The position numbers and the translations under genes are program-made. From Candidatus Nanohaloarchaea archaeon (GTDB lineage Archaea; Nanohalarchaeota; Nanosalinia; Nanosalinales; Nanosalinaceae): a stretch of DNA of 59,095 nt. Location: the NCBI GenBank assembly GCA_046497485.1, contig JAWOFP010000045.1, forward strand, positions 1 to 59,095. Direction: 5' to 3'. The notes under the pieces were generated by a model. That model had not been told where the DNA came from. It did not search any database and saw only the letters and a list, made by a program, of their open reading frames with translations. The first letter of the stretch is position 1. Every line of letters begins with the position of its first letter. Shown piece after piece: positions 34,901 through 52,079 of the stretch.

Positions 34901-34954
34901 AAAAGATGAAAAAGAGTCGTACAAATAAAAACCTCCATCTCTAAACATCTAACA

Positions 34955-36094
34955 ATGTCAAACGCATTTGTCGCAGTACTTGCAGTAGGCCTTACAGTAT
35001 TTGGATTAGCTTTTATCGCGACCGAAGTCGGTCCAGGTTTACAGGAAGATACTGATGAGATGACTTTCTTCGATAAAGATATTGGACAGGTGGGAGAAAC
35101 TCAGACAGATACAAGATCTATAGAACTGGGAAGCTTTACCGTAGGAGAAGGTCGTGGGGATGTCCAAGCCTACAGACGCGACAGCGCTGAAGTCTCTCAA
35201 GGCCGCATCGGGTCCGACCCAATAACCTTCCAGTATGAGGCATCCCAACCTAGAGAAGGATCAGTAAGCTTCCGGGTAATAGGAAGAGAAGGTAACGGAA
35301 ATATCTATATTGAGGTAAATGGAGAAAGAATATTTGAAGAGCCAATGACCTCAGACTTCACAGGAACAGGCTCAGAGTTCACAGTTCCTCAAAGAACACT
35401 TGAACAAGGAACAAACAACTTTGAGATTGGCGCAACAAGAGGCTCACTCTTCTCACCAACAACTTATAGCCTAGAGAATATTCAGGCAGAAGTGAATGAC
35501 AGAGACTTCCACGATCGCGTGGAGACATTCAGGATGTTTGAAAACGAATTCGAAAACCTGTATGATACAAAATTAAGCTTCAAAATCCCTCCACAATCCA
35601 CTCAAGCAGACGCACCGTTACAGATACGCGTAAACAATAATACAGTCAGAGAAGATACATTAGCAAGAGGAGAATACGAAGTCGAATTAACGCCAGAAAA
35701 CTCTGACTTGAGTCCTGGAAGAAATACTATCAGGTTCCTTACATTTGATCAGGCCTTCTATGAGATAGAGAACTCTATACTAGACGTTCAGTACAGCGTA
35801 ACGACTTCAAGCGATGCAGTCACAGAAGAAATTACTCTTTCAGACTCAGAGTTAAGGTTTGCTGACCGTGAAGAAACCCAAGAAGAGTTGAGATTTACGT
35901 ACACTAATCTAAATAACCCTAACAATCTGCAGATTGATTTAAACAACGAAACCTATAATCTGGAGCCTGAAAACGGGCCTAACACTGTAGAACTTGAGGA
36001 AGATGTTCTAACTGAAGACAATATTCTGAGTATGAGTAGCGATGGATCTTTCAGGATGGAAAACCTCCAGTTAGCGAGCTCAGTGAATAATTAA
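34955..36094 (+). CDS. Hypothetical N-terminally anchored extracytoplasmic protein (379 aa)
   Basis: A single N-terminal hydrophobic segment (FVAVLAVGLTVFGLAFI) is followed by a hydrophilic, beta-rich-looking sequence. It is the first gene of the envelope block. Confidence 0.6.
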   Translation: MSNAFVAVLAVGLTVFGLAFIATEVGPGLQEDTDEMTFFDKDIGQVGETQTDTRSIELGSFTVGEGRGDVQAYRRDSAEVSQGRIGSDPITFQYEASQPREGSVSFRVIGREGNGNIYIEVNGERIFEEPMTSDFTGTGSEFTVPQRTLEQGTNNFEIGATRGSLFSPTTYSLENIQAEVNDRDFHDRVETFRMFENEFENLYDTKLSFKIPPQSTQADAPLQIRVNNNTVREDTLARGEYEVELTPENSDLSPGRNTIRFLTFDQAFYEIENSILDVQYSVTTSSDAVTEEITLSDSELRFADREETQEELRFTYTNLNNPNNLQIDLNNETYNLEPENGPNTVELEEDVLTEDNILSMSSDGSFRMENLQLASSVNN

Positions 36095-39090
36095 TGTTTT
36101 TATTCAAATGGATTAAGGAATACTTTGCAATTTTCTTTCTAGGCCTCATCTTCATATGGATGGCCACATTTACGATGATATCTCCATCAGGACTTATGGG
36201 ATTCCTTTTCTGGATAGGCGCATCGCTATTTGCTTCCCTTATGTGGAACGCGTTATGCGGACTACTAATAGGCCCGCTTTATATCATTGTTTTAAGGCCT
36301 GCGCTAGTTATAGCTGTAAAAGTTCCGTTAATCATTCTCAGGATTTTACTGCATATTTTCGTAGCCACTCCATTGAAATTCATGGGACAGTCTAGTTCCT
36401 GGCTCTGGAACGGATTTGAAGGCTCAATAGGAAATATGGTGGCTCGAGATGAAGAAAGCGGAAGAAGAAAACCTAAATTAAGATATATGGCAGTTTTCCT
36501 ATTCTTCCTGGCAGGCCTGACTTATATCGTAGGAGTTGACATTGAAACTTTCACTGCTATGATGCGTGATGCAACAATTTTAGCCATCCCGCTAATTTTT
36601 GTACCTCTAATTTTGACAATGATAGTCAGCGGGATAGGCGTCAAATTAAGCGGTCGTTCATTGGGCGAGACTGCGGAAGAATCCTATGATGATCGAATGA
36701 ATACTGTTGATCAGGCAAGTGAAGTGGCTGAAAGCGCTGTCGGAATCTACAAAGACTTAGACCATATCAACGAACATAAGAAAGCTATAGAGAAAAATGG
36801 CAGCGTTAAAGAAGGTATTAAAGATACAGTAGGTAACAATGGAGTAAGTCAAAGAGCTGCAAGAGCCGGCTCCAAAGCTGATTCAGTAGTAGCTAACAAT
36901 AGATGGCTTACAAGAATTGCAGGAAGCCTTGATGAACTTCCTCTAATTGGAGACTGGCTAGCAGGCATGTTAGGTGGTGTGACAGGCGGTTCAGCTATTG
37001 CAGTACTCATTGTAGTACTCATTATACTGATTGTAGTATGGCTCTTCGTCGCATTGATATTCATAATATTGTTCGGTGGAATCATGTATGCCACAGTCTT
37101 CCCATTCCTTGAGTCCACATTTGGAGTAGCATCAGGATATGGCGCAGATATAGGAGGAGTATTAAGCACAGGCCCTGATGCAAGCCTAGGAGGCCCCTCA
37201 CCAGAGTTCAACAGTTTGAAACTTGCAGGAGCACGGGTAAGCTGTATGCTTGAAGGACCTGCATGCATGAGAGAATGGAGAAACAATAATACACAAAGGC
37301 CGGGATCAGAATCTGTAGGCACAGAATTCGGATTGGAGATAGAAGAATTCAGTGTAAACTCAGGCCTCACTTTGGATATCTCTACACGTAATCAAGATGA
37401 TACTATACCGATTCAGTTTGATGTCTACAACCCGATTCAAGGCCTTAGAGGGATAGAAGCTAGAAATGTTCAATACAGAGTCTCAGTCGATGGAGGACCT
37501 ACAACAAGCTGTAAGAGCGATTGGAAGGATCTAGGAGGCCAGTTTGTAGGAGATAAAGACAATGCGATCGCACCCGGAGGATTTGCAAGGCCTGGCGGAG
37601 AATTAGAAAACCTAACTTTGAAGAACTGTGGAGCCTTACAGCCGGGTTACAGCCAAGACATGTCTGCGGAACTTCAGATAAAGTATGATTACTCTTCACA
37701 GTCTACCTTACAATTCCAGGCGATGGAACAGAGCTACATGATTGATGAAGGTATGAGGCCTGAACCTACTAAATCTGAGACTGCTGATACTCCTGTAAAG
37801 ACCTATGTAAATGTGCAGTCTCCTGTTACATTCAGGAATCCTGAGGATGGAAATGGCCGAGCGCCTATAGAGTTCCCAGTCTGGGTAGGATTCGAGACAA
37901 ACAGATTTGACTTAGAATACCAAGTCCATCCAGACGATTTGAAGATCTACAGTTCTAGTCTATTAACTGATGTAGATAGAACGGAACCAAGCGATTTCGA
38001 TGTAGATCTAAATGAAGAAAACAATGAATTCAGTAGCACATGCTCAGACTTAGAACATCAATCCGGCACAGAATATGCTTTATCAGATGATTACAAAGGA
38101 AATATTAATCAGTCACAAACTGAGGATGGCAACTGGTACACTCGAGGCCTAGGCCCAACATTAGCTCAGTGTTCTATGGTTCTAGCTCCTGATACAATCA
38201 ATTCAATAAGTGAGACAGGAGAATCAATGAGCATCAGAATCGACGGCAACTACACTGTAAGGCTTTCAAGCAGCTCAAAAGACTTTGAAGTAATAAATAA
38301 TAGATGCGGAACAGAGTACAACTGTCCATTCATTGTTACAAAAGAAGAAAGTGATGCTGAGGAAGGTCAAATCTCTGCAGAATGTTCAACAGAAACTAGT
38401 GTAGATTCTACAGATGGATGCACAGTTTTAGAGAACACTAATGCATGGGCTAGTAGGCCTTCACCAGTCAATGATAATAACCAGTTAAGCAACACTATAG
38501 AGAACCGTGAGACTGCCTACAATCTGACAAATCTAGTGACAAATAGACTTTCAAGAAATGAACCTAGCGGAGAAAATATTGACTTTTCAGGATATGAAGA
38601 AAGAGGAGGAGAATTTTACTCTCCAGAAGCTGCAGTAGGCCTAGAGCCAAGAAATGTTGAAGAAGTGAACCAGTCAGACCTTGGTTATGCTATAACCGCA
38701 ACAGAGACTAATAACCATCAAACCGAGATACAGGTGCTGGAAGAGTACTACTTGTGCCAGGATAATAAAAATAAAGCAGAAGACTTCGTATCGGAACAGA
38801 CCGGATCAGATAACATTGTCTATTACAAGGTGCCGGTTATAGACTGTGATCAGAGCTTGCTAGATATCTATGAGTCTCAGGCTAGCAGCAATTTGCAGTG
38901 TGCTATAGATACTGTTGACCCTACCGAAAATGTATTCACAGAGGTAAGAAAAGGCGCGGATTCGTTATGGGATGCCTTCACCCCAGATAGCTGCAGTCTA
39001 GACCCTCTAAGAGGAAGTATTGAGAAGTGTGAAGGAGAAACATACAAAGTATTCGATCCACAATCAGATGCACAGACATGCTTCAGCTAA
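36094..39090 (+). CDS. Large polytopic membrane protein (998 aa) with a Cys-containing extracytoplasmic C-terminal region
   Basis: Multiple hydrophobic segments lie in the first ~330 aa. The following ~650 aa are hydrophilic and carry about 20 Cys. A segment resembles the downstream lipoproteins (AELQIKYDYSSQSTLQFQ). Confidence 0.65.
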   Translation: MFLFKWIKEYFAIFFLGLIFIWMATFTMISPSGLMGFLFWIGASLFASLMWNALCGLLIGPLYIIVLRPALVIAVKVPLIILRILLHIFVATPLKFMGQSSSWLWNGFEGSIGNMVARDEESGRRKPKLRYMAVFLFFLAGLTYIVGVDIETFTAMMRDATILAIPLIFVPLILTMIVSGIGVKLSGRSLGETAEESYDDRMNTVDQASEVAESAVGIYKDLDHINEHKKAIEKNGSVKEGIKDTVGNNGVSQRAARAGSKADSVVANNRWLTRIAGSLDELPLIGDWLAGMLGGVTGGSAIAVLIVVLIILIVVWLFVALIFIILFGGIMYATVFPFLESTFGVASGYGADIGGVLSTGPDASLGGPSPEFNSLKLAGARVSCMLEGPACMREWRNNNTQRPGSESVGTEFGLEIEEFSVNSGLTLDISTRNQDDTIPIQFDVYNPIQGLRGIEARNVQYRVSVDGGPTTSCKSDWKDLGGQFVGDKDNAIAPGGFARPGGELENLTLKNCGALQPGYSQDMSAELQIKYDYSSQSTLQFQAMEQSYMIDEGMRPEPTKSETADTPVKTYVNVQSPVTFRNPEDGNGRAPIEFPVWVGFETNRFDLEYQVHPDDLKIYSSSLLTDVDRTEPSDFDVDLNEENNEFSSTCSDLEHQSGTEYALSDDYKGNINQSQTEDGNWYTRGLGPTLAQCSMVLAPDTINSISETGESMSIRIDGNYTVRLSSSSKDFEVINNRCGTEYNCPFIVTKEESDAEEGQISAECSTETSVDSTDGCTVLENTNAWASRPSPVNDNNQLSNTIENRETAYNLTNLVTNRLSRNEPSGENIDFSGYEERGGEFYSPEAAVGLEPRNVEEVNQSDLGYAITATETNNHQTEIQVLEEYYLCQDNKNKAEDFVSEQTGSDNIVYYKVPVIDCDQSLLDIYESQASSNLQCAIDTVDPTENVFTEVRKGADSLWDAFTPDSCSLDPLRGSIEKCEGETYKVFDPQSDAQTCFS

Positions 39091-39688
39091 AATAAACTAA
39101 AGCATTACTTACCGTGAGGTAAAGGCCTACTACATAAATTATCTTAAGCAACAGCTTTGACTCTTTTTCAGGAAGCTTTAGATAGCTGTAAATTATTACA
39201 GGCAAAATTACCGCTTTCACGCCAAAAATAGAGATAGACCCAAAATTATCTATAATCAAGTCAATTAATGGATTTACTTCTCTAAGGCCTTTTCTTATTC
39301 CTATATAGGTTGTAAATGCATCACCCACATGGGTTAAAGTAGCAAGGAGCATTAACGAAAATCTTTCAGAGTAAGATGAAAGAACTAGGTTTGCGATAAT
39401 GGCGCTAACCCCTGCCATAATTATTAGGCTTGCCGGCGTTCCAGATTCCAGAGTTAGAAATGATATAAGAGATATTAGTAGTAGACCCGGACGGGGATAA
39501 AAATGCAATACAGAGAGAAAAATTAGGGAGACTAAAGCTGCAAAAATCCCCGACATATAACCTGATAACTGGAAGAAGGCCTGTAATACTGAAGCAGACA
39601 GAACAGCAACTGTTATCTCCGGGAATGAAAATGAGTTCAGGAAAGACACCATTTGGTTTTCTGGAATCTTTTTATTCAAGGCCTCCAT
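39083..39688 (-). CDS. Polytopic membrane protein with a DUF5658-like C-terminal segment
   Basis: I set the start at MEALNKK (ATG at 39688) to avoid overlapping the gene at 39700. The motif is THVGDAFTTYIGIRKGLREVNPL. Confidence 0.5.
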   Translation of the reverse strand: MEALNKKIPENQMVSFLNSFSFPEITVAVLSASVLQAFFQLSGYMSGIFAALVSLIFLSVLHFYPRPGLLLISLISFLTLESGTPASLIIMAGVSAIIANLVLSSYSERFSLMLLATLTHVGDAFTTYIGIRKGLREVNPLIDLIIDNFGSISIFGVKAVILPVIIYSYLKLPEKESKLLLKIIYVVGLYLTVSNALVYFS

Positions 39689-39699
39689 AATATAGAATA

Positions 39700-40623
39700 A
39701 TGCGTAATGGATATATTTTAGCTTTAGTGGGTCTAGTAATTTTAACCTCTGGATGTATGGATGGAGGAGAGGAAACCGAGTCAGAAGGAACTCAAGCGAT
39801 TGGAGTGAATGAATTGAGTGTAACGCCTCAGACAATCTATGCAGATTCCAGCACTACAGCCATACTTCATATCGAGAATACAGGCCTGCTTGACGCAAAT
39901 CTTACTATTGACAGCGAATGGAGTCAGGACGATACTCATCCGAATTACGGGGATAGATTATTGACCAATAGGTGCAGAGATATTTTTGAGGTAGATGAGT
40001 TTTCTGCTAGAGGGCCTGGAGACCAAAGTAAGGATAGATATAATCTTCCTTCAGGTACAGAGGCAAGGTTTAGCTGGAGTCTCAGCACGAGAAACGCTAA
40101 TGTCCCTATTCAAGGCCTTGATTGTAACATGAGGTTTGAGGTTCCGTTCGATTACAGTGTATCTGCTTATCGACAGCTTCAGTTTTTGGAAAGCCGAGAA
40201 GTTCAGGGCGTATCAGAGTTAGATTCGAGGTCTTCGAGAGGGCCTATGGCGATAAACATTGAGACAATCGGATCGACTTCAGAACAAGGTTCTTCAACCT
40301 TTGTAGAAGGAGATAATGCAGAAGTAATAATTAGACTGCGAAATCAGGTAGAGGAAGGATCAAGTTACACAGGATTTATACAGGCAGAAGTACCGGAAAT
40401 TGAGGCCTCAGGCGTTGAGTTTGAGGAAGAATGTGAAGGCGCTCAGGGAGATACCATTACTATGTATGAAGGAGAGTCTCAGCCTATTAGATGCAGTATA
40501 AGCGATGAAGTATTTGAAGACCTAAATGGTTCTGCAAGAGGAGAAGTAAGAGTATCAGCTGACTATACCTATGTGAAAGATCTTGGATCAAAAAATGTGG
40601 AGGTAGAGTACCGTGGAAACTAA
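39700..40623 (+). CDS. Putative lipoprotein, paralog 1 of 3 (307 aa)
   Basis: The signal has a lipobox-like end (VILTSGCMDGGEE). It has a two-domain pattern, with FDYSVSAYRQLQF mid-protein and SADYTYVKD near the C-terminus. Confidence 0.65.
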   Translation: MRNGYILALVGLVILTSGCMDGGEETESEGTQAIGVNELSVTPQTIYADSSTTAILHIENTGLLDANLTIDSEWSQDDTHPNYGDRLLTNRCRDIFEVDEFSARGPGDQSKDRYNLPSGTEARFSWSLSTRNANVPIQGLDCNMRFEVPFDYSVSAYRQLQFLESREVQGVSELDSRSSRGPMAINIETIGSTSEQGSSTFVEGDNAEVIIRLRNQVEEGSSYTGFIQAEVPEIEASGVEFEEECEGAQGDTITMYEGESQPIRCSISDEVFEDLNGSARGEVRVSADYTYVKDLGSKNVEVEYRGN

Positions 40624-41425
40624 AATACTGTTACTTATCGGAATAATCGTCATAACTTCAGGATGTCTCGACCAAATAAACAACGGGAACAATAACAATC
40701 AAGAATTACCGAACAGAGGCCTTGTAATCGAGGATTTTACAGTTACAGACCAGGAATTAAGGCCTGAGCAGCAGGCAGTAGTTAGAGCAGACTTCAAAAA
40801 TTATCACGAGGAAATTGATGTACAGAATATTGAACTCCAGCCAGGGACTCGTTTGGATGTAAGTAGTGAGGGCTGTAGTCCCGAGCCAAGTGAGCTTGAA
40901 GGAGCAGGTAACGGTATTGCACCTACTATGTCATGCACCTGGACAGTTGAAGCCCCCCAAGAGGGAGACGCTGATGTTTATCAAGGAGGAGTCTCAGAGA
41001 GCTTACAGTTAAGAGCAGAGTACGAGGCCTCGATGGAGAATCAAGAGCCGATGAAATTAGATTTTAGCCCTGCGACCGATATTGAATCGACAAGCATAGT
41101 TTCTCAGTCATCCTCCAATGGAGAAATCTCACTAAGTTTAACTGCAGACAATCCTATCGCGATGAACGCAGGTACAGGTCTTGAAGTAGTAGCAGACAAT
41201 GACGGGCCTGGAAGATTACCTGAAGGCTTCAGTTTCGAGTTTGAGCCTGAGAGATTGTTTGATGACTGTGAATCCGGCAGAACCGAGGAAGGATTGCAGA
41301 ATGATCGAGTAAACTTTGTTTGCACGCTTAGCTCTTCTAATCAGGGCGTACAGAATGTTTTCGTTTCCACAGATTATAAATACATCAAATCACCAGTTAT
41401 AGACATAACAATTGTGGATCGCTAA
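40613..41425 (+). CDS. Putative lipoprotein, paralog 2 of 3 (270 aa)
   Basis: Signal VITSGCLDQ, with AEYEASMENQEPMKLDF mid-protein and STDYKYIKS near the C-terminus. It overlaps the upstream gene by 11 nt. Confidence 0.65.
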   Translation: METKILLLIGIIVITSGCLDQINNGNNNNQELPNRGLVIEDFTVTDQELRPEQQAVVRADFKNYHEEIDVQNIELQPGTRLDVSSEGCSPEPSELEGAGNGIAPTMSCTWTVEAPQEGDADVYQGGVSESLQLRAEYEASMENQEPMKLDFSPATDIESTSIVSQSSSNGEISLSLTADNPIAMNAGTGLEVVADNDGPGRLPEGFSFEFEPERLFDDCESGRTEEGLQNDRVNFVCTLSSSNQGVQNVFVSTDYKYIKSPVIDITIVDR

Positions 41426-42462
41426 TGGAAAAAAATACTAAACTTTTGATGGTACTTGTAAGCGCAGTTTTAATCACTTCAGGATGTATGGAAGGAGGTG
41501 AAAGCGAGGCCTCTACAGAGGCAGTCTCAATCAGTGACTTCAGTATTACCCCTAATCCCTCGCCAGGAGGTCAGCAAGCCACCCTCCAGATGCAGGTAGA
41601 GAATGCCGGAGATGCCGTAGCTACCGATGTAAGAGCTAATCTATTTGGACCTACTATAGGCGATGGCACAAGAACTTGGTCAGCGCTAGAAGGCACAAAG
41701 ATGGAGTTCAATGATCTTCAACCAGCTACAGATAACCAGCCAGCAATACCTCAGCAGGCCTCTCTTACAATGGAGACGCCTGAACTAGAGCAAGGAAGAG
41801 ATTTACCTTATGATTTTAATTCTCAGATATTTTACGGTTATGAGACTACAGCGTCTACATCTTTACAGGTCATGAGTCAGGAAAGATACCAGGAAACAGG
41901 CGCATCTCAAGAACAGACTTCTGTCAGCAACAGCAATGGTCCTATCCAGCTTAGTGTACAGGGTACAACACCAATAGTTTTCCAGCCTGATACGGGAGGA
42001 GAGAGAACAAGCGATTTATGTATAACAGTGACAAACAGTGGAAGCGGATTACCTTTCAATCCGGGAGCACTTCCTACTGAAGACAGTTCCGATATTGATG
42101 ACGATGATGAGAATAATGTCGAACTGGAAATTGAAAATGTAGGAAACATTGTATTTACCGCTGAAGAAGATGGAGAAGTAGAAACGGAAGATGGAGTAGC
42201 AACTAGTGTAGATATTATAGGAAATGAAGGTTTTCACTGCTTCACAATGACAGCAGCAGGCCTAGGGGACATCACAACTTTAGAACAGACTGCAAACATT
42301 GAGATAGATGCAGATTATGGGTACAGAGAAGAGACAGCAACTTCAGTAACTGTAGAAGGGCGCGGAACATCTTCATCAGGCAGCTCAGACACAGGTTCAA
42401 GCTCTTCAGATGATTCTGAAGACAATGAAGGTCCCGGTGCGCCGCCAACTCCAGGAGAGTGA
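41425..42462 (+). CDS. Putative lipoprotein, paralog 3 of 3 (345 aa) with a Ser/Gly/Asp-rich tail
   Basis: Signal LITSGCMEGGE, with FYGYETTASTSLQV mid-protein and DADYGYREE near the C-terminus. The tail is SSSGSSDTGSSSSDDSEDNEG. Confidence 0.65.
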   Translation: MEKNTKLLMVLVSAVLITSGCMEGGESEASTEAVSISDFSITPNPSPGGQQATLQMQVENAGDAVATDVRANLFGPTIGDGTRTWSALEGTKMEFNDLQPATDNQPAIPQQASLTMETPELEQGRDLPYDFNSQIFYGYETTASTSLQVMSQERYQETGASQEQTSVSNSNGPIQLSVQGTTPIVFQPDTGGERTSDLCITVTNSGSGLPFNPGALPTEDSSDIDDDDENNVELEIENVGNIVFTAEEDGEVETEDGVATSVDIIGNEGFHCFTMTAAGLGDITTLEQTANIEIDADYGYREETATSVTVEGRGTSSSGSSDTGSSSSDDSEDNEGPGAPPTPGE

Positions 42463-42468
42463 TTATTA

Positions 42469-43956
42469 ATGAAAAAGATAGCCATTTTCTTTTCCTTAAT
42501 TATTTTTACAGTTTCTTCTTCAGCAATTATGCTGGATCAGGGTTGGAATACTATATCAGTTAATTCAGAGTTTGATATCTCAGATGCAATAGAGAAAAAT
42601 AATAACTGTGAGTTTGAGAGATATCAAGGAGAGTACATCTGGAAATATGATAATAGACAGGACGATTGGACTCATCCAGATACACTGCAGCCTGAAGACG
42701 GATTCTATCTATATACCGACAATAACTGTGAACTGGAAGTTGACCAGAGTACCGAAAACAATATTGACAATTTAGAAATGGATTCAGGATGGAACATGAT
42801 AGGCGCTTCACACGACCAACTTTCGAGAGTTCAATCAAGCTGCGATATTAACCCTCATTTAAACAATGGAGACTTCAGTTTTCTCCTCAACGGAGAATGG
42901 TACCATCCTCTAATATCGGCATCGGAGATGGAAAACAGAGGTTACTGGCTGAATCTTAATGAAGGGGACTGCCAAGTTAACTTTGATGAAGAGCTCGATG
43001 AACCTGAAGAAGAACCTATTGAAGACAGCTACCTTGAGTTCAATGATGCAGAAATAGTATCGGAAACAGTTTCAGCAGATGGTGAAAACCTAGATGTGGA
43101 TTTCAGCTTTGACAGAGATTCAGCCACTGAAAACGATGTTGAGGCTAAAGTAGGTCTTCACATAGATGAGAGTAGTTCTCCGGTGAAGACTTTTGAGTTA
43201 TCTGATAAGAGAGATCAGACAGTTTCAGCTAACTGGAAAAATATATGGGAAGAAGTTGGAGAAAGCAGTGGAGATTCTTCTGCCCAGCTTGTTCTTCAAA
43301 AGAAGACTGAAGGTGAGTTTAGGTGGAACAGAGATAGTATAGATGTTGGAGAGTTTACAGTTGAGAGATGTAGCAGTTTCAATCCAGAGACCAGTAATAA
43401 CTGGGAGCTGACCTATGAGCCAGATAATGAGGAAAGGTGCCTAGATAAGGTGAAAGCAGGAGAAAGCTCCGATGGAAGCCAAGGACTATTGATAAGATCC
43501 AACCAGGGCGGAGTAGCAGGATCAGTTGAACTTAGAAAAGTATATCGTGATACTGAGGGAACTGAGAGACTGACAATTGATCTTACCAAGCTAAAAGATT
43601 CAAGCCAGATAAGAACTTCGAATATCGAGATCAGACATTTCAAAGGTGGAGAAGGAGACGGGTGGAATACGGTTCTAGAAGACGAGGTATATAATCTGGA
43701 CCCACAGTCAGTTAAACTGGACTTCAGTAAGGCCTTGAGCGGAACTCATCCATATAATATCGTGGAAGTCACTGTTGAGAATAATAGATATAGTTCCAGT
43801 ATGGATCCCCTGGAGATAGAAGGAGATCTACAGTTTGAGAGGTATCCTGAAGATGGGTCAGGGACATGTCAGCCAGGTCAGACTTGGTGTGGAGATGGAA
43901 GCGGCGGAGGAACTTGTATTGATGATGAAAGTTACAGTCCAGGCCTCTGCTACTAA
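42469..43956 (+). CDS. Secreted hypothetical protein (495 aa) with a duplicated N-terminal GWN module and a Cys-rich C-terminus
   Basis: It has a Sec-type signal (IFFSLIIFTVSSSA). There are two similar ~85-aa modules (LDQGWNTISVN..C..W..GFYLY..C and MDSGWNMIGAS..C..W..GYWLN..C). The C-terminus is GTCQPGQTWCGDGSGGGTC. Confidence 0.6.
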   Translation: MKKIAIFFSLIIFTVSSSAIMLDQGWNTISVNSEFDISDAIEKNNNCEFERYQGEYIWKYDNRQDDWTHPDTLQPEDGFYLYTDNNCELEVDQSTENNIDNLEMDSGWNMIGASHDQLSRVQSSCDINPHLNNGDFSFLLNGEWYHPLISASEMENRGYWLNLNEGDCQVNFDEELDEPEEEPIEDSYLEFNDAEIVSETVSADGENLDVDFSFDRDSATENDVEAKVGLHIDESSSPVKTFELSDKRDQTVSANWKNIWEEVGESSGDSSAQLVLQKKTEGEFRWNRDSIDVGEFTVERCSSFNPETSNNWELTYEPDNEERCLDKVKAGESSDGSQGLLIRSNQGGVAGSVELRKVYRDTEGTERLTIDLTKLKDSSQIRTSNIEIRHFKGGEGDGWNTVLEDEVYNLDPQSVKLDFSKALSGTHPYNIVEVTVENNRYSSSMDPLEIEGDLQFERYPEDGSGTCQPGQTWCGDGSGGGTCIDDESYSPGLCY

Positions 43957-43996: not shown

Positions 43997-45721
43997 TTAC
44001 CATTCTCTTACGAGAATGACTGCAGTGATTACGAGGCCTGCGAGGATTGCTGCTATTCCTCTTGAAATGTTGTCTGCTTCGGTTATTGCCTGATATAGGC
44101 CTGAAGCGCTGCTTGAGAATCTTCCTACGAAGCGGCCTTCATTGCTTCTGATGGCTTCTTCTACTTCTTCGTTTATCACTAGGTCGACTTTCTGTGTTGC
44201 TCTGACTTCGTTTCCTTCTGCTACTGCTGTGATTTCTACTTCTCCTTTCTTCTCGAAAGGTACTCCTGCATACATGTAAACTGTCTCTGTCTGTCCAGGA
44301 CCTACTGTGACTTCTTCAGGCCTAATAGATATCCATTCAGGGCCTTGGTGTGTTAGTCTGTAAGTGTTCTCTCTTGTTCCAGGGTTTTCCACGTTGATCT
44401 CGTATATGGTGGACATGTTTTCTCCTGCTGAAGCAATTTCAGGCACAACATCTAGACCTATATCCCAGCAGTTTTCGACTGTTAAAGTTGTCTCATCCGA
44501 GTTTGTTGGCTCGTCAAATGTTGTAGCCTGAGATTCTAGATTTACTGTGTGTTCTCCGTCATCCATTCCTGAACTATTCACTGTTAGGCCGACTTCCTCC
44601 GAATCTCCAGCATCTAAAGTTAGCTGGTCTTCTTCTAAGGCTCCTATGTTGCTTGAGAGATTGTATGTCTCTTCTGCTTCTCCATCATTCTCTATCTCTG
44701 CTTCGTACTCTGCAGATTCATCTCTGCAAACTGTTGTAGACTCATCAAATGTAACGTCGGAACTCATTCCATTATATGAATTGACTGATACAGTCTGTGA
44801 GGATTCAGAGTTTCCTTCTGCATTTACTGTTATATCCTGTTCTCCGACATCCTCTGGTGTGAAGCTAAGAGTGGCAGTCTCTGTGGAGTCTGCATCTACA
44901 TCTAGAACAGTCTCTGATAATTCTCCTCTGTCTGTGGTTAATGCAAATTCATCGTCTCTGGTTCCATCATTTCTTACTGTCACATCGAACTGTGACTCGG
45001 TAAATGCTGCTGCATCCTGTGTTTCTGGACTGATAGATACCTCAGAGTCGAAACAGTTTTCTGAATTGAATTGCACATTCATTGTTTCTGTTGCATAGCT
45101 AGTTGTAGACGATGCTTTGACGTTGAAGTTTTCCTCGGCGACTTCTTCGGAAGAGGCAGTTAATACTACTGTAGTAGATTCTCCCTGATCAAGGTTTACT
45201 CTATCCCTATCCAGTTCTCCATATTCAGTTGTCAATGCGAATTCCTCCTGCTGGAGTCCTTCATTAGTGACATCTATCTCATAGTTTGCGGTTTCTCCTC
45301 TACATACAACTGCCGAGTCAGAACCTGATACAGATACTTCGTGGTCCTTAATTACGTTTACACGGCCCGAAGTTGAGTAAGTTTGTCCATCTGCACTAGA
45401 ATCTGCGTCAATCCTGAAACTGTAGGTTCCTGCGTCTCTATCAACTCTAGGATTGAACCATACATTGAATGTCTCGGTCTCCCCTGATTCAAGCTCGATC
45501 TGAGTCGGAGCTACAGAAATTTCTCCAGGATAATTGTGCTGGATCTCATAGGTATCCTTTACAGGCCCGACATTCTGGATGTCGACCTCGTAAGATGTGA
45601 AGGAGTTAATCTCAGTGCTTGATTCCTCCGGGAAAATTGTTAATTCTGCTTGGCTCGCCGTTGCGAGGCCTAATAGTATAGTTGTTGTTATTAGTAAAGT
45701 TGCAAGTTTGGAAACCTTCAT
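43997..45721 (-). CDS. Cell-surface repeat protein (~574 aa): signal peptide, about five CARDB/S-layer-like beta-sandwich repeats, and a C-terminal transmembrane anchor
   Basis: The likely start is MKVSKLATLLITTTILLGLATASQA (ATG at 45721). Repeat units have the form EFALTTEYGELDRDRVNLDQGESTTVVL, EFALTTDRGELSETVLDVDADSTETATL and TYNLSSNIGALEEDQLTLDAGDSEEVGL. The C-terminal anchor is AAILAGLVITAVILV. Confidence 0.7.
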   Translation of the reverse strand: MKVSKLATLLITTTILLGLATASQAELTIFPEESSTEINSFTSYEVDIQNVGPVKDTYEIQHNYPGEISVAPTQIELESGETETFNVWFNPRVDRDAGTYSFRIDADSSADGQTYSTSGRVNVIKDHEVSVSGSDSAVVCRGETANYEIDVTNEGLQQEEFALTTEYGELDRDRVNLDQGESTTVVLTASSEEVAEENFNVKASSTTSYATETMNVQFNSENCFDSEVSISPETQDAAAFTESQFDVTVRNDGTRDDEFALTTDRGELSETVLDVDADSTETATLSFTPEDVGEQDITVNAEGNSESSQTVSVNSYNGMSSDVTFDESTTVCRDESAEYEAEIENDGEAEETYNLSSNIGALEEDQLTLDAGDSEEVGLTVNSSGMDDGEHTVNLESQATTFDEPTNSDETTLTVENCWDIGLDVVPEIASAGENMSTIYEINVENPGTRENTYRLTHQGPEWISIRPEEVTVGPGQTETVYMYAGVPFEKKGEVEITAVAEGNEVRATQKVDLVINEEVEEAIRSNEGRFVGRFSSSASGLYQAITEADNISRGIAAILAGLVITAVILVREW

Positions 45722-45820
45722 TGTTTGGTGTGTCACCTATACATGATTACACCGACAAAATTTTAAATAAAGGCAGGGTAGAATTAGTTACTCTTAAGTA
45801 AAATAAAGAAAAAGAAAGGC

Positions 45821-48800
45821 CTATCTGTAACGAAGCCACATCATGAAACGGTCCAGACGAGAAGGTTCTCGATCAGTTCCCCCTGAACTTAGATCGATAT
45901 CCTCGGTGTAAACCGTTCCGTCTTCAGACTCGACTCTCAGAGTTCCTGTAAACTCGCCTTCTTCCTTTGGAGTGAAGTAGAGGTACTCTGTCTTTCTCTC
46001 ACCACTATCCAAATGAACCTGTTTCCTACTCTGAGCCGTCCAGCTATCTGGAAGGCCTTCCAGGCTGATTTCATAATTCCTGAACTCTCTCTGATTGTTA
46101 TAGAGCTGGACTCTAACCATCCCGCTTCCAGATCTGACAGATGCTATCTGGTCAGGGAAGTTTCTGACCTCTGAATCCATCTCCATAACTTCAACTGAGG
46201 TAGACTTGGTAGATGACTGTCCTCTAGCGTAACCAACTACTTCATAGTCATAGTTGCCAGGCTTGGTTCTTCTATCGAAGCATACTTCTCCACGACCATA
46301 CTTTGAATCAACCTCTTCGCCATCTTCCTTAAGCACGACCAATGGACCTGAACTCTGTGACTCTACCTCTGCACATACCTCATATGTGTCACCCTCAAAT
46401 ACACGATCAGGGCTTGAAGAAGCGCTTACTACAGATACTGTCGGCAGCACATCTACCCTAGTATTTGCCTCCATCCCTGAAGCCTCAGCCGTCAAAGTCT
46501 GCTCACCAATACTACTTGGTTCCACATATAGTTCGTAGTATCCACTTGGATCTGTAGTCGCAGATCCCAGACTTCTATAACTATTACTTGAACCTATATT
46601 GACCTGAGTTCCTCTATCAACATCATCAACATAACCCGAGACTCTGACAGATTCTCCTACTCTAATCTGTGTAGGCCTAGCGCTTACTGAGATATCAGAG
46701 TCATCTTGATCTCCACAGTCTCTGACCTGGACGGTTTTTTCCCTTGAGCCGTCTCCAGTTGTGAAGCTGACTCTCTCATTCCCTGAACCTTCGACATTGA
46801 TGAACTCTATTGTTCTTGTAAAGCTTTCATCATCATCCAAGCTATAGCTTCTATCGATTTCATTCTCTAAGCCTGACGCCGACAAAGTAAATGTTCTATC
46901 TCTATCACCAGTATTCTCTATATCAAGTCTTGCGGTTACATCCTCGCCTCTGCAGACTGAGTTAGGCATCCTGATATCCTGAATCCTTATCTCTCCTTGT
47001 CCAATATCTCTATCTCTCGAATCCAGTTCTACCTCAATATTTCTATCTCTGTCAAGAGTAACAGTTCTGCTCTCTGATCTGTAATCATCAGCAGACACAA
47101 AGACTGAGTAAACCGATTCCTCTAAATTGAAGCCTGCTTCTCCATCACTATCAGTAGTTCTAGTTCTCCCATCTACCGATACTCTCGCATCCTCTATCTC
47201 ATCATCTGTCTCAGAATCCACAACGTCTACATCAAGATTATAGAACTCTGGATCGGCTTCTTCCGACCTGACATGGACTACTCGAGTCCTGTCATCAGTC
47301 CTACCTTGAGAGTCCTCTACCTCAAGATTGACTCTGTAAAAACCAGAGTCATCAAATTCATGAGTTACAGTTCTACCTGAAGCCGTCGAACCATCGTCAA
47401 ACTCCCAGTCATAGCTCTCAATATCTCCGCTCGACAGGCCTCCATTGAACTGCACGGTCTGATCTTCTAAAGGCCTTTCAGGACTGAAGCTGAAGTCTGC
47501 CTCAACCCCATCAACTTCGCTCAATGTCAATGAGATAGTTCTATCTCTATCAAGTTCTACATTATTTCTTACTCTGGTGCTGTAACCTGGTTTGGAAGCA
47601 ACTACATCATAGCTTCCTTCTTCCAAGTTCTCGATTGTTGCTACACCGTTTGATCTTGTGAATGCTGTCTCGCCCCCCACATTTACTTCTGCATTCTCTA
47701 AAGACGAGCCTGAACTGCTTAGAACAACAACATCTAGGTCAAATTCCTCTTCCGTATCCTCAGGCTCATCTTCCTCCTCCAGACATAAATTCTGAGGAGC
47801 GCTTCTGCTATCTGCAAGGTCTCCGCCAGACCTCAGTCTAGCGCTGAGACTGTAACACTCGCCAGCTTCCAGGCCTTCAGACAACAACTGATTATAAGAT
47901 CTATCGCGTTCCAAATCTCTCTGACTATCTCCAGGCACCGTTCTACTATCGGAACCGATCCTGTTTCCTCCGGCTCTCCAGTCAACCTGTACTGACGCAG
48001 AGCTACCGCCCTCATTTTCTACAGTAGATCTGAGCTCGGTTGATTCGCCCGGCCCTACACTATATCTTGAGGTAGAGACCGATTTGAACTCAACATCTGC
48101 ATCTTCAACAGATTCATCAGATTCTCTTACATTGATGTATGTAAAGTCTTCGTCATTTTCGGTTTCGACATCCGCCCTTCTATATCCAGAATCTCCGTCT
48201 TCAGTCTGCCATTTGAGCGTGCCGGTTTCGGACTCATCCGAATCAAGAGATACCCAGTCTCTGTCTCTTCTTTCCCCTCTAACATATAGTTCAACATACT
48301 GCGAGTCTTTACCCCCTCTATTCTCCACTTCGTAGTCAACTAAAGCAGTCTCCTCTTCATCTACAGGACTATTCGAATCGATATTTGTTATTCTGAATTC
48401 GGAGTCTTCTTCAGGCTCTTCTGGTTCATCCTCATCTTTCAGTACTTCAACTATTTCAGTCGCGTCATCGTTTTCAGATTGGACTTTGATGCTTCTATAT
48501 CCAGAGTCCCCATCTTCTGTATCCCATTCTAATTTTCCAGATTCAGATTCTCCAGGTTCAAGGTCTATATTAGAGTCTCTGTCCTGTCTCTGACCTCTAG
48601 CCCTAAGATCAATATCTTGAGAATCCTCTTGATCCCCTGTATTCGTAACAGTATAATCCACATATACAGATTCTCCTTCAGTAACTTTATCATCGAAATC
48701 ATCTATCTCTACATCAAAGTTAGCAGGATCATTGCTCTGGTCGCTTCCCTTGATATTTACAAATTTTGTCGCTTCATCATTTTCAGAACTTATCTTGATA

Positions 48801-50080
48801 TTCCTATAACCTGAATCTCCTTCTTCAGTATCCCATTCTAATGTGCCGGATTCAGATTCTCCAGGTTCCAAGTATGAAACATATTCTCTATCTCTTCGCT
48901 CATTTCTGGCATCCAATTCTACATACTGTGAATCTCTCTTGTCGCCAGTATTTGTGACAGTGAAATCTACTTCCAAAGTTTCTCCTTCAGTCACTGATTC
49001 AGCCCGATCTATCTCTACATCAAAGTTAGCAGGATCTTCGGGTTCATCTTCTTCTAAAAGCGTTACTGTCTGGCCTGAATTTCTTTCATCACCGCTTACT
49101 TCTTCCTCTGCAGATACATCATATTGCTTTCCAATTTCTAGGCCTGACTCTTGGAGCTCAGAGTAGTCTCTGTTCAAGGTAACTGTCCTAGAGTCTCCAG
49201 CATCAATATTCACATACTTTGAGCCTACCTTGATATCGTCTGCATACCAGTTGATATCAGAATACCCATCGGCAGATCCTTCATTCTCTATTTCGGCCTC
49301 GAAAGTTGTCGATTGGCCTTCCTCTATTTCTTCATCTTTGATTGATACATCGTTAATTACGAAATCAGACTCTGCTTCTTCCACATTAAAGCTTTCTTCA
49401 CGAGAGATGAGTTTTCCATCCGAGGCCTCTATCTCTGCCACGATTTTATTTGCAGTGGCTCCTTCAACCGGTTCAAACTCTCCTTCAGCCGAACATCTTT
49501 CTCTCTCAGTTCCCAGCCTCGGATTCCAATAACAATCACTCGACCCTATCTCCTCCTGTTTAAAACCATTTTTATAGTATTCATAGTAGATATCTAGGTT
49601 TCTACTCCATAAATTGCCTCTAGAATCATAGGCTTCAGCATTTACTGTATATGTTTCTCCTAGCTTCGCTGGGTCTGGAAGCTCCGAGAAAGTCATACTT
49701 GTAACTCGTGATCCTACATCATCTTCTTCAGTAATATCTATAAATTCTGTTCTTGAAGTTTCTAGTCCGTCCTCATCTTCAGCAGTTGCAGTAACAGATC
49801 TGTACCCCTCATTATCTATCGAAAAATTCCACTCTCTTTCACAGTATACCGGCTCACCACAGGATTTTTCCTGGATACCTTCGCCCCAGTTAAGACCCAT
49901 TATCTCTACTTCCTTGTCATCTACTTTAGAGCGAATAGTTACTGTTATTTCCTCCCCCTGTTCGGCCTGCTCAGGCATGTCAAATTCTGTTACCTCTATC
50001 TGATCCTGAGCTACCACAGGACTGGCAAATACTGCCAAAACCAGCATCGCAATTATTAGTATTTTATTTTTCATGAGCAA
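45821..50080 (-). CDS. Giant secreted multi-domain surface protein (1419 aa) with CARDB-like repeats, two carboxypeptidase-regulatory-like domains and a PKD domain
   Basis: It has a signal peptide (ILIIAMLVLAVFASPVVAQ). The PKD-like segment is FSFSPERPLEDQTVQFNGG...YDWEFDDGSTASGRTVTHEFDDSGFYRVNLEVED (about 47267-47503). The CarboxypepD_reg-like segments are AEVNVGG..TRSNGVATIENLEEGSYDVVASKPGY and ARVSVDGRTRTTDSDGEAGFNLEESVYSVFVSADDY. Confidence 0.75.
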   Translation of the reverse strand: MLMKNKILIIAMLVLAVFASPVVAQDQIEVTEFDMPEQAEQGEEITVTIRSKVDDKEVEIMGLNWGEGIQEKSCGEPVYCEREWNFSIDNEGYRSVTATAEDEDGLETSRTEFIDITEEDDVGSRVTSMTFSELPDPAKLGETYTVNAEAYDSRGNLWSRNLDIYYEYYKNGFKQEEIGSSDCYWNPRLGTERERCSAEGEFEPVEGATANKIVAEIEASDGKLISREESFNVEEAESDFVINDVSIKDEEIEEGQSTTFEAEIENEGSADGYSDINWYADDIKVGSKYVNIDAGDSRTVTLNRDYSELQESGLEIGKQYDVSAEEEVSGDERNSGQTVTLLEEDEPEDPANFDVEIDRAESVTEGETLEVDFTVTNTGDKRDSQYVELDARNERRDREYVSYLEPGESESGTLEWDTEEGDSGYRNIKISSENDEATKFVNIKGSDQSNDPANFDVEIDDFDDKVTEGESVYVDYTVTNTGDQEDSQDIDLRARGQRQDRDSNIDLEPGESESGKLEWDTEDGDSGYRSIKVQSENDDATEIVEVLKDEDEPEEPEEDSEFRITNIDSNSPVDEEETALVDYEVENRGGKDSQYVELYVRGERRDRDWVSLDSDESETGTLKWQTEDGDSGYRRADVETENDEDFTYINVRESDESVEDADVEFKSVSTSRYSVGPGESTELRSTVENEGGSSASVQVDWRAGGNRIGSDSRTVPGDSQRDLERDRSYNQLLSEGLEAGECYSLSARLRSGGDLADSRSAPQNLCLEEEDEPEDTEEEFDLDVVVLSSSGSSLENAEVNVGGETAFTRSNGVATIENLEEGSYDVVASKPGYSTRVRNNVELDRDRTISLTLSEVDGVEADFSFSPERPLEDQTVQFNGGLSSGDIESYDWEFDDGSTASGRTVTHEFDDSGFYRVNLEVEDSQGRTDDRTRVVHVRSEEADPEFYNLDVDVVDSETDDEIEDARVSVDGRTRTTDSDGEAGFNLEESVYSVFVSADDYRSESRTVTLDRDRNIEVELDSRDRDIGQGEIRIQDIRMPNSVCRGEDVTARLDIENTGDRDRTFTLSASGLENEIDRSYSLDDDESFTRTIEFINVEGSGNERVSFTTGDGSREKTVQVRDCGDQDDSDISVSARPTQIRVGESVRVSGYVDDVDRGTQVNIGSSNSYRSLGSATTDPSGYYELYVEPSSIGEQTLTAEASGMEANTRVDVLPTVSVVSASSSPDRVFEGDTYEVCAEVESQSSGPLVVLKEDGEEVDSKYGRGEVCFDRRTKPGNYDYEVVGYARGQSSTKSTSVEVMEMDSEVRNFPDQIASVRSGSGMVRVQLYNNQREFRNYEISLEGLPDSWTAQSRKQVHLDSGERKTEYLYFTPKEEGEFTGTLRVESEDGTVYTEDIDLSSGGTDREPSRLDRFMMWLRYR
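48116..49036 (-). repeat. Three tandem ~100-codon intragenic repeats within the 1419-aa gene
   Basis: The units are DPANFDVEIDRAESVTEGE...SGYRNIKISSENDEAT, DPANFDVEIDDFDDKVTEGE...SGYRSIKVQSENDDAT and SEFRITNIDSNSPVDEE...SGYRRADVETENDEDF. The DNA string tctctacatcaaagttagcaggatc is identical at about 48706-48730 and 49012-49036. Confidence 0.8.
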
Positions 50081-50556
50081 TTCTCCCCCGCGTAGTTCTC
50101 CAGCGTTCCATCATAATTTTTTGCCTCTGCAAACGGCTCTATAACCTCATTACTGGCCGAATACCATCCTAAAGTATGAGTCTCATCGCTATTCTCAAGC
50201 TCAACTTTATATCGGAAAGAGGATCCTACATCTCTTGGGCCACCTGAAGGATCATATACGAACTCGGCTTCTATAACATCCCTTCCTGTCTCTGGATCCA
50301 GCAATTCATCTAAAGATTCGTCTATACCTTTCAGCTCTTCATCATCTAGGCAAGATCTAAGGCTCTCTAACTCTTCAGCATCATAAGACTTTCTTACTGG
50401 ATTATTTGATTCAGGATCTTGTGGTTCCTCATCTTCTTCATCTAAATAAGAAGCTACACCTACTCCTGTGCCTATTGTTCCTGTCAATGCTCCTATCACT
50501 GCAGCCGCCGTGGTCTTATTGAATTCTCTTCTATTTACTTCATCTCTTATTGGCAT
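50071..50556 (-). CDS. Hypothetical exported protein with a twin-arginine-like signal (161 aa)
   Basis: The N-terminus NRREFNKTTAAAVIGALTG matches the Tat consensus (S/T-R-R-x-F-L-K plus a hydrophobic stretch). Its stop overlaps the start of the 1419-aa gene. Confidence 0.55.
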   Translation of the reverse strand: MPIRDEVNRREFNKTTAAAVIGALTGTIGTGVGVASYLDEEDEEPQDPESNNPVRKSYDAEELESLRSCLDDEELKGIDESLDELLDPETGRDVIEAEFVYDPSGGPRDVGSSFRYKVELENSDETHTLGWYSASNEVIEPFAEAKNYDGTLENYAGENCS

Positions 50557-51062: not shown

Positions 51063-52079
51063 TTAACGATTTAGAATGTTATCGGCCGCATCCATATCAC
51101 TTTCAGCGCGGTCTAATTCATTCTCAATGTAATTAGCGTGAGATTCAGCATTGTCTCTCTTGTTGTCTCTTCTTGCTGATTCTCTAGCTACAGTCTGATC
51201 TAAATCGTCTAGGATGTCGTGAGCCTCTTGAAGAGTATCGTCTACATCTTCAACTAGATCTCTATACCTATTAGCAAATTCCTGAATCTGATCATCGTCA
51301 ATCTTGTCTTCATAGAGCTCTCTCACCTCATCAATTAATTCAGTTGCGTCAATAAGATCGTTCTCGTACGCATCTGCTGCAGCCCTCATTCTACTTGCAT
51401 AATCTTCTAGGTCATCTGTCATATCATTGTCACCTCCTTGATTTGATTCAGGGTTTTGATTATCCGTAGGTTCGTATACCATGACTCCTGGAGGAAAACT
51501 TTCTCCATCATAAGGCCTGCGGTCAACAGGCTCATGATCACTTTCCTTAAATTCGCTAGTACTCATACCTCCTTCAGTCATGTTATCACAAGCAAGTAAT
51601 AAACCACTATCTTTATATAAATTTTCAAGTTTTTCCTCCTGACCTGTCTCAATATAGAAACCAGCAACCATCTCAACTAGAAGGTCATGTCCGTTTGCTT
51701 CCTCACCGTTAAATCTTCTTTCCGCTAGACTCAACTTTCCGCCAGGCCTATTTTCAGAATCATAGGCGATATTGGCGATCCTGCTCCTGCCGTAACGCGG
51801 ATTTCCGTGCTGCTCAGCCAGAACCCTATCAGCCTCCTCAACCAACCCCTCATCAACTAGAACCTTGTCATCTACCTCAAAAACTGCTAGATGTGCAATC
51901 CAGTTAGCCAGACCATCATTACCTTTTCTTTTAGATGGAGCAGGATGAATCTTCTCTAACTCGTCAAGGAAATCATATTCCGAGGCCTCAATTTCAGGAT
52001 CCCTCACCTGTTCCAAGGCCTCTATAATAATTTCTGCATCTTCTGAGGCATCCTCAATTACTTCATCCCGGCTCATCAT
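51063..52079 (-). CDS. Hypothetical highly acidic protein (338 aa), with no signal peptide
   Basis: ORF with a C-terminal ~120 aa helical D/E-rich module that starts MTDDLEDYASRM. Confidence 0.55.
   Translation of the reverse strand: MMSRDEVIEDASEDAEIIIEALEQVRDPEIEASEYDFLDELEKIHPAPSKRKGNDGLANWIAHLAVFEVDDKVLVDEGLVEEADRVLAEQHGNPRYGRSRIANIAYDSENRPGGKLSLAERRFNGEEANGHDLLVEMVAGFYIETGQEEKLENLYKDSGLLLACDNMTEGGMSTSEFKESDHEPVDRRPYDGESFPPGVMVYEPTDNQNPESNQGGDNDMTDDLEDYASRMRAAADAYENDLIDATELIDEVRELYEDKIDDDQIQEFANRYRDLVEDVDDTLQEAHDILDDLDQTVARESARRDNKRDNAESHANYIENELDRAESDMDAADNILNR

Follow-up and report, generated by a model that had tools for sequence, protein, structure and literature searches.

Lipidation of archaeal lipoproteins requires the enzyme AliA (arCOG02177), which is HVO_2859 of Haloferax volcanii (PMC12462473, PMC13631571), a protein listed as a 'DUF63 family protein' (PMC9426492). 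A putative catalytic pocket with two conserved arginines was described for AliA, the enzyme has been reported in DPANN and, according to Hong et al., its paralog aliB frequently has its genes in the vicinity of lipoprotein genes (PMC12462473). The lipid on the cysteine (Cys) can be assayed by mass spectrometry or Triton X-114 partitioning (PMC13631571). Cultured nanohaloarchaea have a single bilayer plus a surface layer (S-layer). In the present study, a set of envelope genes was analysed in a stretch of 59,095 nucleotides (the window) from contig JAWOFP010000045.1 (assembly GCA_046497485.1) of a Candidatus Nanohaloarchaea archaeon. The set encodes three lipobox proteins, a polytopic membrane protein whose ectodomain appears to carry the same two-module unit, and a membrane protein related to AliA. 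To our knowledge, lipidation has so far not been demonstrated in any DPANN archaeon, and the molecular make-up of DPANN envelopes is almost undescribed, although the cells live by contact with host surfaces.

The genes are labelled g1, g2, g3m (the minus-strand membrane gene), g4, g5, g6, g7 and g8. All seven open reading frames (ORFs) that an original prediction, made from the DNA letters, had assigned to the set (g1 to g7) were located at the positions given, and its suggestion of a reduced archaeon is borne out, the organism being a nanohaloarchaeon of the DPANN group and all reference-genome loci recovered being nanohaloarchaeal. The window has a G+C content of ~42% and the encoded proteins are strongly acidic. 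The three lipobox proteins are encoded on the plus strand by g4 (39700..40623; 307 amino acids (aa), Cys19), g5 (40613..41425; 270 aa, GTG start, Cys18) and g6 (41425..42462; 345 aa, Cys21), and the signal ends reported for them, LTSGC, ITSGC and ITSGC, are present. In nearly all full-length orthologs of the three families the lipobox Cys is found at position 17-23, directly after the hydrophobic stretch, in the forms ITSGC, LTSGC, IASGC, IISGC and IVAGC. The variant in the window has T at -3, and the strict pattern [LVI][ASTVI][GAS]C was matched only in divergent lineages. The elements of an archaeal Sec-type signal, i.e., a short polar n-region, an h-region and an invariant +1 Cys, are found in all three proteins, and theirs are the sole lipobox-type N-termini within the 59-kb window.

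That the three lipobox proteins are related copies, as was claimed in the original prediction, was supported by hhalign comparisons of the family profiles from the syntenic loci, made with the signal peptides removed. The proteins g4 and g5 were aligned with a probability of 91.8% over 221 columns, i.e., almost their entire length, g5 and g6 with 93.7% over 159 columns, and g4 and g6 with 90.1% over 42 columns. When 2664 sequences were searched, one half of them reversed decoys, the hidden Markov model (HMM) of g4 matched g6 orthologs at E 1e-9 and the g5 HMM matched g4 and g6 at ~1e-3. Pairwise BLAST and phmmer searches among the three proteins mainly recovered the signal peptides, plus a weak full-length match between g5 and g6. 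The genes g4, g5 and g6 are ancient paralogs, each encoding a lipobox Cys and two modules of the immunoglobulin (Ig)/CARDB-like beta-sandwich type. Conserved Cys pairs occur at 92/142 and 245/265 in g4 and at 88/108 and 219/237 in g5, while g6 has one conserved pair (positions 199 and 272); in g2, g4 and g5 there is one pair per module. Such conserved pairs fit disulfide-bonded extracellular domains.

The AlphaFold model of g6 (predicted local distance difference test score (pLDDT) 84, predicted template modelling score (pTM) 0.75) consists of two beta-sandwich modules, aa 34-151 and 165-311; the signal at the N-terminus and an acidic tail rich in Ser (aa 316-345) are disordered. Of the three motifs noted earlier, the strand at the start of the mature protein coincides with the first strand of module 1, and the aromatic motif in mid-protein and the C-terminal motif occupy the long terminal hairpins of modules 1 and 2, respectively. 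Foldseek searches with g6 against PDB and viral models gave generic tandem Ig-like proteins with template modelling (TM-) scores <=0.26, including integrin leg domains, MSCRAMM adhesins, transglutaminase barrels, the AglB C-terminal domain and a viral DUF11 protein. The modelled fold can confidently be regarded as a generic pair of Ig-like sandwiches. A relationship of g6 to the C-terminal domain of AglB/STT3 was considered, the match having a probability of 0.99 and a TM-score of 0.26, but it was rejected as generic beta-sandwich likeness. A fusexin-like protein was likewise dismissed; none was among the Foldseek matches listed, and the transmembrane helices are N-terminal.

The 998-aa polytopic membrane protein is encoded by g2 (36094..39090, plus strand) and comprises a hydrophobic N-terminal region (aa 1-345) and an ectodomain (aa 365-998). 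The original prediction proposed that this ectodomain carries the two-module pattern of the lipoproteins, and searches in both directions bear this out. The signal-free g6 HMM matches every g2 ortholog with E values from 5e-8 to 2e-6, the best decoy being at E ~0.4, and reciprocally the HMM of the g2 ectodomain matches g6 orthologs down to E 2e-7. In the wider g2 family, 58 of the 102 representatives are matched by the g6 HMM, several of them with a second collinear match on the C-terminal strand motif. When a merged profile of g4, g5 and g6 was compared with the g2 ectodomain, a probability of 89.2% was obtained (E 2.2e-6, 260 columns). The alignment spans g2 ~403-741 against nearly the entire mature lipoprotein and is collinear across all three motifs, pairing IEEFSV with ISDFSI, YDYSSQSTLQF with YGYETTASTSLQV, and RIDGNYTV with EIDADYGY. 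Its strongest segment, g2 515-589 against g6 121-194, begins with the final hairpin of module 1 and extends into the initial strands of module 2. Column-reversed profiles gave 0.1% and g1 and g7 less than 1%, so that neither g1 nor g7 has a relation to the two-module unit that is detectable by profile comparison. For the CARDB-repeat neighbour g8, used as a further control, the values were 40% with the lipoproteins and 0.3% with g2. The profile alignments thus give moderate yet specific support that aa ~403-741 of g2 (37300..38316, plus strand) are a fourth, diverged copy of the two-module unit, placed right after the last transmembrane helix.

Two proteins recovered by an exhaustive profile search, P0145 and P0148 (277-289 aa; whole-library E 3e-11 and 1e-6), consist of one N-terminal anchor and the g2-type core alone, and both can be aligned at 99.7% with residues 365 to ~720 of g2. 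Since the core occurs by itself in these proteins, it is an autonomous unit of lipoprotein size. The g2 ectodomain has 10 invariant Cys (384-776), six in the core (473, 512, 650, 693, 738 and 744) and four flanking it. Past the shared unit g2 extends for ~250 residues; this Cys-containing, fast-evolving C-terminal region (38329..39090, plus strand, aa 746-998) keeps the invariant Cys 764 and 776 in its proximal part, but tblastn does not find the region as a whole in distant relatives.

The hydrophobic part of g2 behaves differently from its core. In distant loci the transmembrane region becomes undetectable by sequence, and across the g2 family it is bimodal, with either ~140-290 aa and 1-4 transmembrane segments or ~320-460 aa and many, while the core is constant. 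This combination of a variable membrane region with a constant core suggests that the membrane part of g2 is an anchor and not a transporter. A charged helical loop within it (aa ~185-295) is probably cytoplasmic. The same observations bear on the possibility that the set is an uptake machine, in which g2 would serve as a permease or channel and the lipoproteins would bind host-derived lipids or nutrients. According to the literature, nanohaloarchaea are without lipid synthesis and must import lipids, and the combination of a polytopic protein with lipoproteins superficially resembles binding-protein-dependent transporters. However, no ATPase or known permease family was found in the set with Pfam and NCBIfam, the membrane region of g2 ranges from one to many transmembrane segments and is neither conserved nor detectable in distant orthologs, and g6 is predicted to form two Ig-like sandwiches rather than the alpha/beta fold of binding proteins. 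An uptake function is thus very unlikely.

Comparison of the window with the related nanohaloarchaeal loci L001-L013 and L017-L020, each where the genes are covered, showed the same order throughout: S12-S7-EF2-EF1a-S10, HtrA, Pelota (minus strand), g1, g2, the AliA-like gene (minus strand), g4, g5 and g6, followed 3' of g6 by a variable slot, g8 (minus strand) and a giant CARDB/PKD protein (minus strand). The genes g1, g2, AliA-like (minus strand), g4, g5 and g6, in this fixed order, are a lineage-wide nanohaloarchaeal envelope set, and g1 is present in every related locus that covers its position. Synteny was also identical in L017, a non-acidic organism, indicating that the set predates the split of strongly and weakly halophilic lineages; roughly one in three representatives of the g2 family is non-acidic. 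The genes are retained with moderate divergence: between the nearest and the most distant locus, identities decreased from 92% to 54% for Pelota and from 86% to 51% for HtrA, and from 87% to 36% for g1, 88% to 34% for the g2 core, 88% to 34% for g4, 80% to 28% for g5, 82% to 30% for g6 and 79% to 45% for g8. The S12-S7-EF2-EF1a-S10 string, followed by HtrA and Pelota, was placed in the window by synteny with L001, L003 and L004 (26352-31505, plus strand, and upstream), and the surroundings from S12 to Pelota are an unusually stable housekeeping neighbourhood for envelope genes. Separately, a relative of the lipoprotein family was found in an Aenigmatarchaeota metagenome-assembled genome (P0043, L014 380-1294), where the g6 HMM gave E 4e-22 in the local database; it is the only such relative found with an organism name outside Nanohaloarchaea. 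Its neighbours are MJ0043_C and DUF1512 genes. As P0043 lies on short contigs, on which no g2-like gene is visible near it, the set cannot be extended beyond Nanohaloarchaeota.

The conservation pattern also bears on the role in host contact or adhesion that was put forward in the original prediction. Under this explanation, g4-g6 and the g2 ectodomain would bind the haloarchaeal host, and the slot occupied by g7 together with the C-terminal region of g2 would set the specificity. Nanohaloarchaea are host-dependent and need cell contact according to the literature, the integrin leg domains and MSCRAMM-type adhesins are among the best structural matches of g6, and both the g7 slot and g2 residues 746-998 differ strongly among lineages. 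On the other hand, the core genes are retained 1:1 beside translation genes in all lineages sampled, including the non-acidic ones, which probably have other hosts. The shared modules themselves are the most conserved parts, and the Foldseek matches are generic beta-sandwiches with TM-scores no higher than 0.26. Moreover, the interaction proteins proposed in the literature for nanohaloarchaea (SPEARE, LamG/PKD) are strain-specific and much larger. A host-contact system is therefore judged rather unlikely, and less likely than a core role in the envelope, because the genes are always retained at a fixed housekeeping site, also in the non-acidic lineages.

The arrangement of the genes suggests co-ordinated synthesis. 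The stop of g1 overlaps the start of g2 as TAATG (36094), g5 and g6 overlap in the same manner (41425), g4 and g5 share 11 nt (40613-40623), and the gap between g6 and g7 is 6 nt. These overlaps fit translational coupling. The original prediction regarded them as consistent with an operon, but the plus-strand genes are arranged in two units, g1-g2 and g4-g7, split by g3m, and not as a single operon. Pelota and g1 (34946-34957) are divergent with 6 bp between the start codons, and so are g3m and g4 (39686-39702) with 11 bp. TATA-like AT boxes precede the starts of g1, g4 and g3m by ~27 nt and lie within the neighbouring coding sequences, and their positions suggest that the transcripts may be leaderless, with promoters embedded in coding sequence. 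A scan with bacterial promoter and terminator models gave fewer sites than in shuffled sequences, the models being bacterial and not applicable to an archaeon. The search for sequencing runs returned three DNA metagenomes and no RNA.

Gene adjacency could also be explained without any complex, if the four related surface proteins act independently and are adjacent through tandem duplication beside a shared lipidation-enzyme gene. Tandem paralogs are frequently mere duplicates, and the evidence at hand consists of homology and adjacency. However, the triplication is ancient, each paralog finding its own orthologs far better than the other paralogs, and no copy was lost, gained or reordered in any lineage, which would not usually be expected of redundant copies when genomes are strongly reduced. 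Co-ordinated synthesis is in addition suggested by the overlaps of starts and stops. Independent action of the four proteins is therefore considered unlikely.

The minus-strand gene g3m (39083..39688) lies between g2 and g4 and encodes a 201-aa membrane protein. The 250-aa ORF with a TTG start (39083-39835, minus strand) is over-extended, and its apparent overlap with the start of g4 is an artefact of ORF listing. The true length is likely ~201 aa, with Met at 39688, because orthologs were called at 165-201 aa, most of them at 199-201 aa. The protein matches Pfam PF18902 (DUF5658) at E 1.7e-9. At the same position and on the same strand, L012, L011 and L010 have clear DUF63 (PF01889) genes with E values of 1e-47, 4e-41 and 1e-11, respectively; the gene of L013 is near-identical to that of L012, and that of L019 matches the profile of the L010-L013 proteins at E 1e-75. 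In NCBIfam there was no model matching the DUF63-type proteins. The g3m family was aligned with them by hhalign at 96.8% (E 2e-10, 152 columns; g3m 49-200 against 98-264), the alignment including the motif H-x-x-D-A-x-[ST]-T, and the family HMM matched them at E 1e-11 to 3e-7. The DUF63-type proteins have a C-terminal motif, GTRNIL, the Arg of which is replaced by Ser in the window family. Given the DUF63 genes at the same position, the profile homology and the identity of HVO_2859 with AliA, g3m is taken as a derivative of the AliA family, i.e., as a shortened DUF63/AliA relative.

No named family was recognised for any gene of the set in the original prediction. This stands for the six plus-strand genes and not for the minus-strand gene, which is a DUF5658 member related to AliA/DUF63. 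With g1, g2, g4, g5, g6 and g7 nothing was found above threshold in Pfam or NCBIfam, sequence-profile searches of PDB with g2 and g6 gave nothing relevant, and the distant relatives of g2 have no Pfam domain either. The match of g6 to CARDB (PF07705) is sub-threshold (E 0.011, 16.4 bits vs. a gathering cutoff of 22.7), and g4, g5 and g2 have no match to this family in Pfam. Described S-layer, PGF-CTERM and solute-binding families gave no significant match by Pfam, NCBIfam, PDB profiles or Foldseek; membership of a known S-layer or substrate-binding family, named in the original prediction as what would overturn it, was thus found neither by sequence nor by fold. In the literature on cultured nanohaloarchaea no mention of these genes was found. 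The plus-strand proteins represent new families that have no Pfam or NCBIfam model, and the g2 family, with ~104 clusters at 50% identity, merits family definitions.

Based on these results, the explanation we favour, with a probability of roughly 45%, is that g2, g4, g5 and g6 form a core structural complex of the envelope. Archaeol would be attached as a covalent thioether to the lipobox Cys of g4-g6 by g3m or by another AliA encoded elsewhere in the genome. The three lipid-anchored subunits and the membrane-anchored unit of g2 would then form one disulfide-stabilised hetero-oligomer at the outer face of the membrane, probably with g1 as an accessory subunit. A hetero-oligomer is suggested because each paralog was kept 1:1 and in the same order in every lineage and because the gene overlaps fit translational coupling. 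Such a complex could organise or anchor the envelope, e.g., as a bridge between the membrane and either the S-layer or the giant CARDB/PKD proteins of the adjacent genes, and surface features specific to a lineage would come from the g7 slot and the C-terminal region of g2. A core structural role is favoured by four features, namely that the paralogs are strictly retained although the genomes are reduced, that the genes seem to be coupled, that the anchor varies and that the housekeeping neighbourhood is fixed. The same four features make a transporter, or a host-contact device under rapid evolution, less likely.

Several points speak against the structural complex. The similarity between g2 and the lipoproteins is only moderate (89% probability), with the strongest signal within ~75 residues. 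The full-length AlphaFold2 model of g2, based on an alignment of 13 sequences, had a pLDDT of 45 and was too poor to use, and the result of its Foldseek search, no match at E<=0.001, is meaningless at this pLDDT. The complex itself would follow from the paralogy and the fixed 1:1:1:1 synteny of the genes. Ig-like domains are also typical of adhesins, which keeps a contact role in consideration. As for g3m, there was no match to PF01889 (DUF63) at E<=1, so that by Pfam it does not belong to this family; the N-terminal ~95 residues of DUF63 are missing and only the C-terminal ~60% is covered. Moreover, it evolves faster than all other genes of the set, with 51% identity to its closest relative vs. 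80-90% for its neighbours. Judged from these sequence features, g3m may not be an active lipid transferase. A more far-reaching version of the core envelope complex, i.e., an undescribed phylum-wide heteromeric complex of four two-Ig-module paralogs with its own diverged AliA-type transferase, which would link the membrane to the S-layer and act as a host interface through its variable parts, is doubtful.

The set offers concrete, conserved and experimentally tractable envelope proteins in Nanohaloarchaeota. An AliA-family gene beside its probable substrates is, moreover, a natural test case for the newly discovered archaeal lipoprotein pathway in DPANN.

The 379-aa protein of g1 (34955..36094, plus strand) has a single N-terminal transmembrane anchor (aa 4-22) and an acidic, Cys-free ectodomain. 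The slot between g6 and g8 is occupied in the window by g7 (42469..43956, plus strand), whose secreted product of 495 aa is rich in Cys and has a signal peptide but lacks a lipobox. In L004, L006 and partly in L009 the slot is taken by a g7-like gene; L001 (16443-17711), L007 (8842-9996, minus strand), L008 and L011 (5151-6776) have another gene there, and in L010, L012, L013 and L017 the slot is empty. Outside the region covered by the original prediction lies g8 (43997..45736, minus strand), whose product of 579 aa combines a signal peptide with CARDB/Ig-like repeats and a transmembrane anchor at the C-terminus; it is a conserved convergent neighbour and probably part of the same envelope neighbourhood. 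It is followed by a further conserved convergent gene (45821..50080, minus strand), the secreted product of which has 1419 aa and contains CARDB, PKD and CarboxypepD_reg domains. This protein is a candidate for a major surface or S-layer protein and is also matched by the g8 HMM (E 4e-11). Further on, two very acidic proteins, both having no family match, are encoded on the minus strand at 50071-50556 and 52088-53044. Each has an N-terminal twin-arginine-like motif followed by a short hydrophobic stretch (NRREFNKTTAAAVIGAL and SRRRAIVSAGSLIAG, respectively), and they are possible substrates for export by twin-arginine translocation (Tat), judging by these N-termini. Between them sits a 338-aa acidic orphan (51063-52079).

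Compared with known systems, the set shows both shared and distinct features. Like the lipobox lipoproteins that depend on AliA, g4-g6 have short Sec-type signals ending in [ST/IA]-[SA]-G-C, and a DUF63-related gene adjoins them; however, g3m differs from AliA in being only 201 aa long, in matching DUF5658 and not DUF63 in Pfam, and in its fast evolution. With surface domains of the CARDB/DUF11 type, to which archaeal S-layer and cell-surface proteins made of Ig-like domains are counted, the set shares the two beta-sandwiches of g6, and both g8 and the 1419-aa protein next to it are genuine members of the CARDB/PKD type, whereas the long terminal hairpins of the YDYSSQSTLQF and DxxYxY types and the pattern of one Cys pair per module are specific to the window family. 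The family has no PGF-CTERM or other known S-layer anchor. The set could further be compared with the bacterial BamA-BamBCDE, in which one membrane-embedded subunit and several lipid-anchored partners are also encoded together. This is an analogy without homology, since there is no beta-barrel or POTRA domain in the window set and since the partners here are paralogs of the ectodomain of the membrane subunit. The set may thus best be regarded as a lineage-specific variant of archaeal Ig-like surface lipoproteins with an AliA-type enzyme, for which a function in the envelope is suggested.

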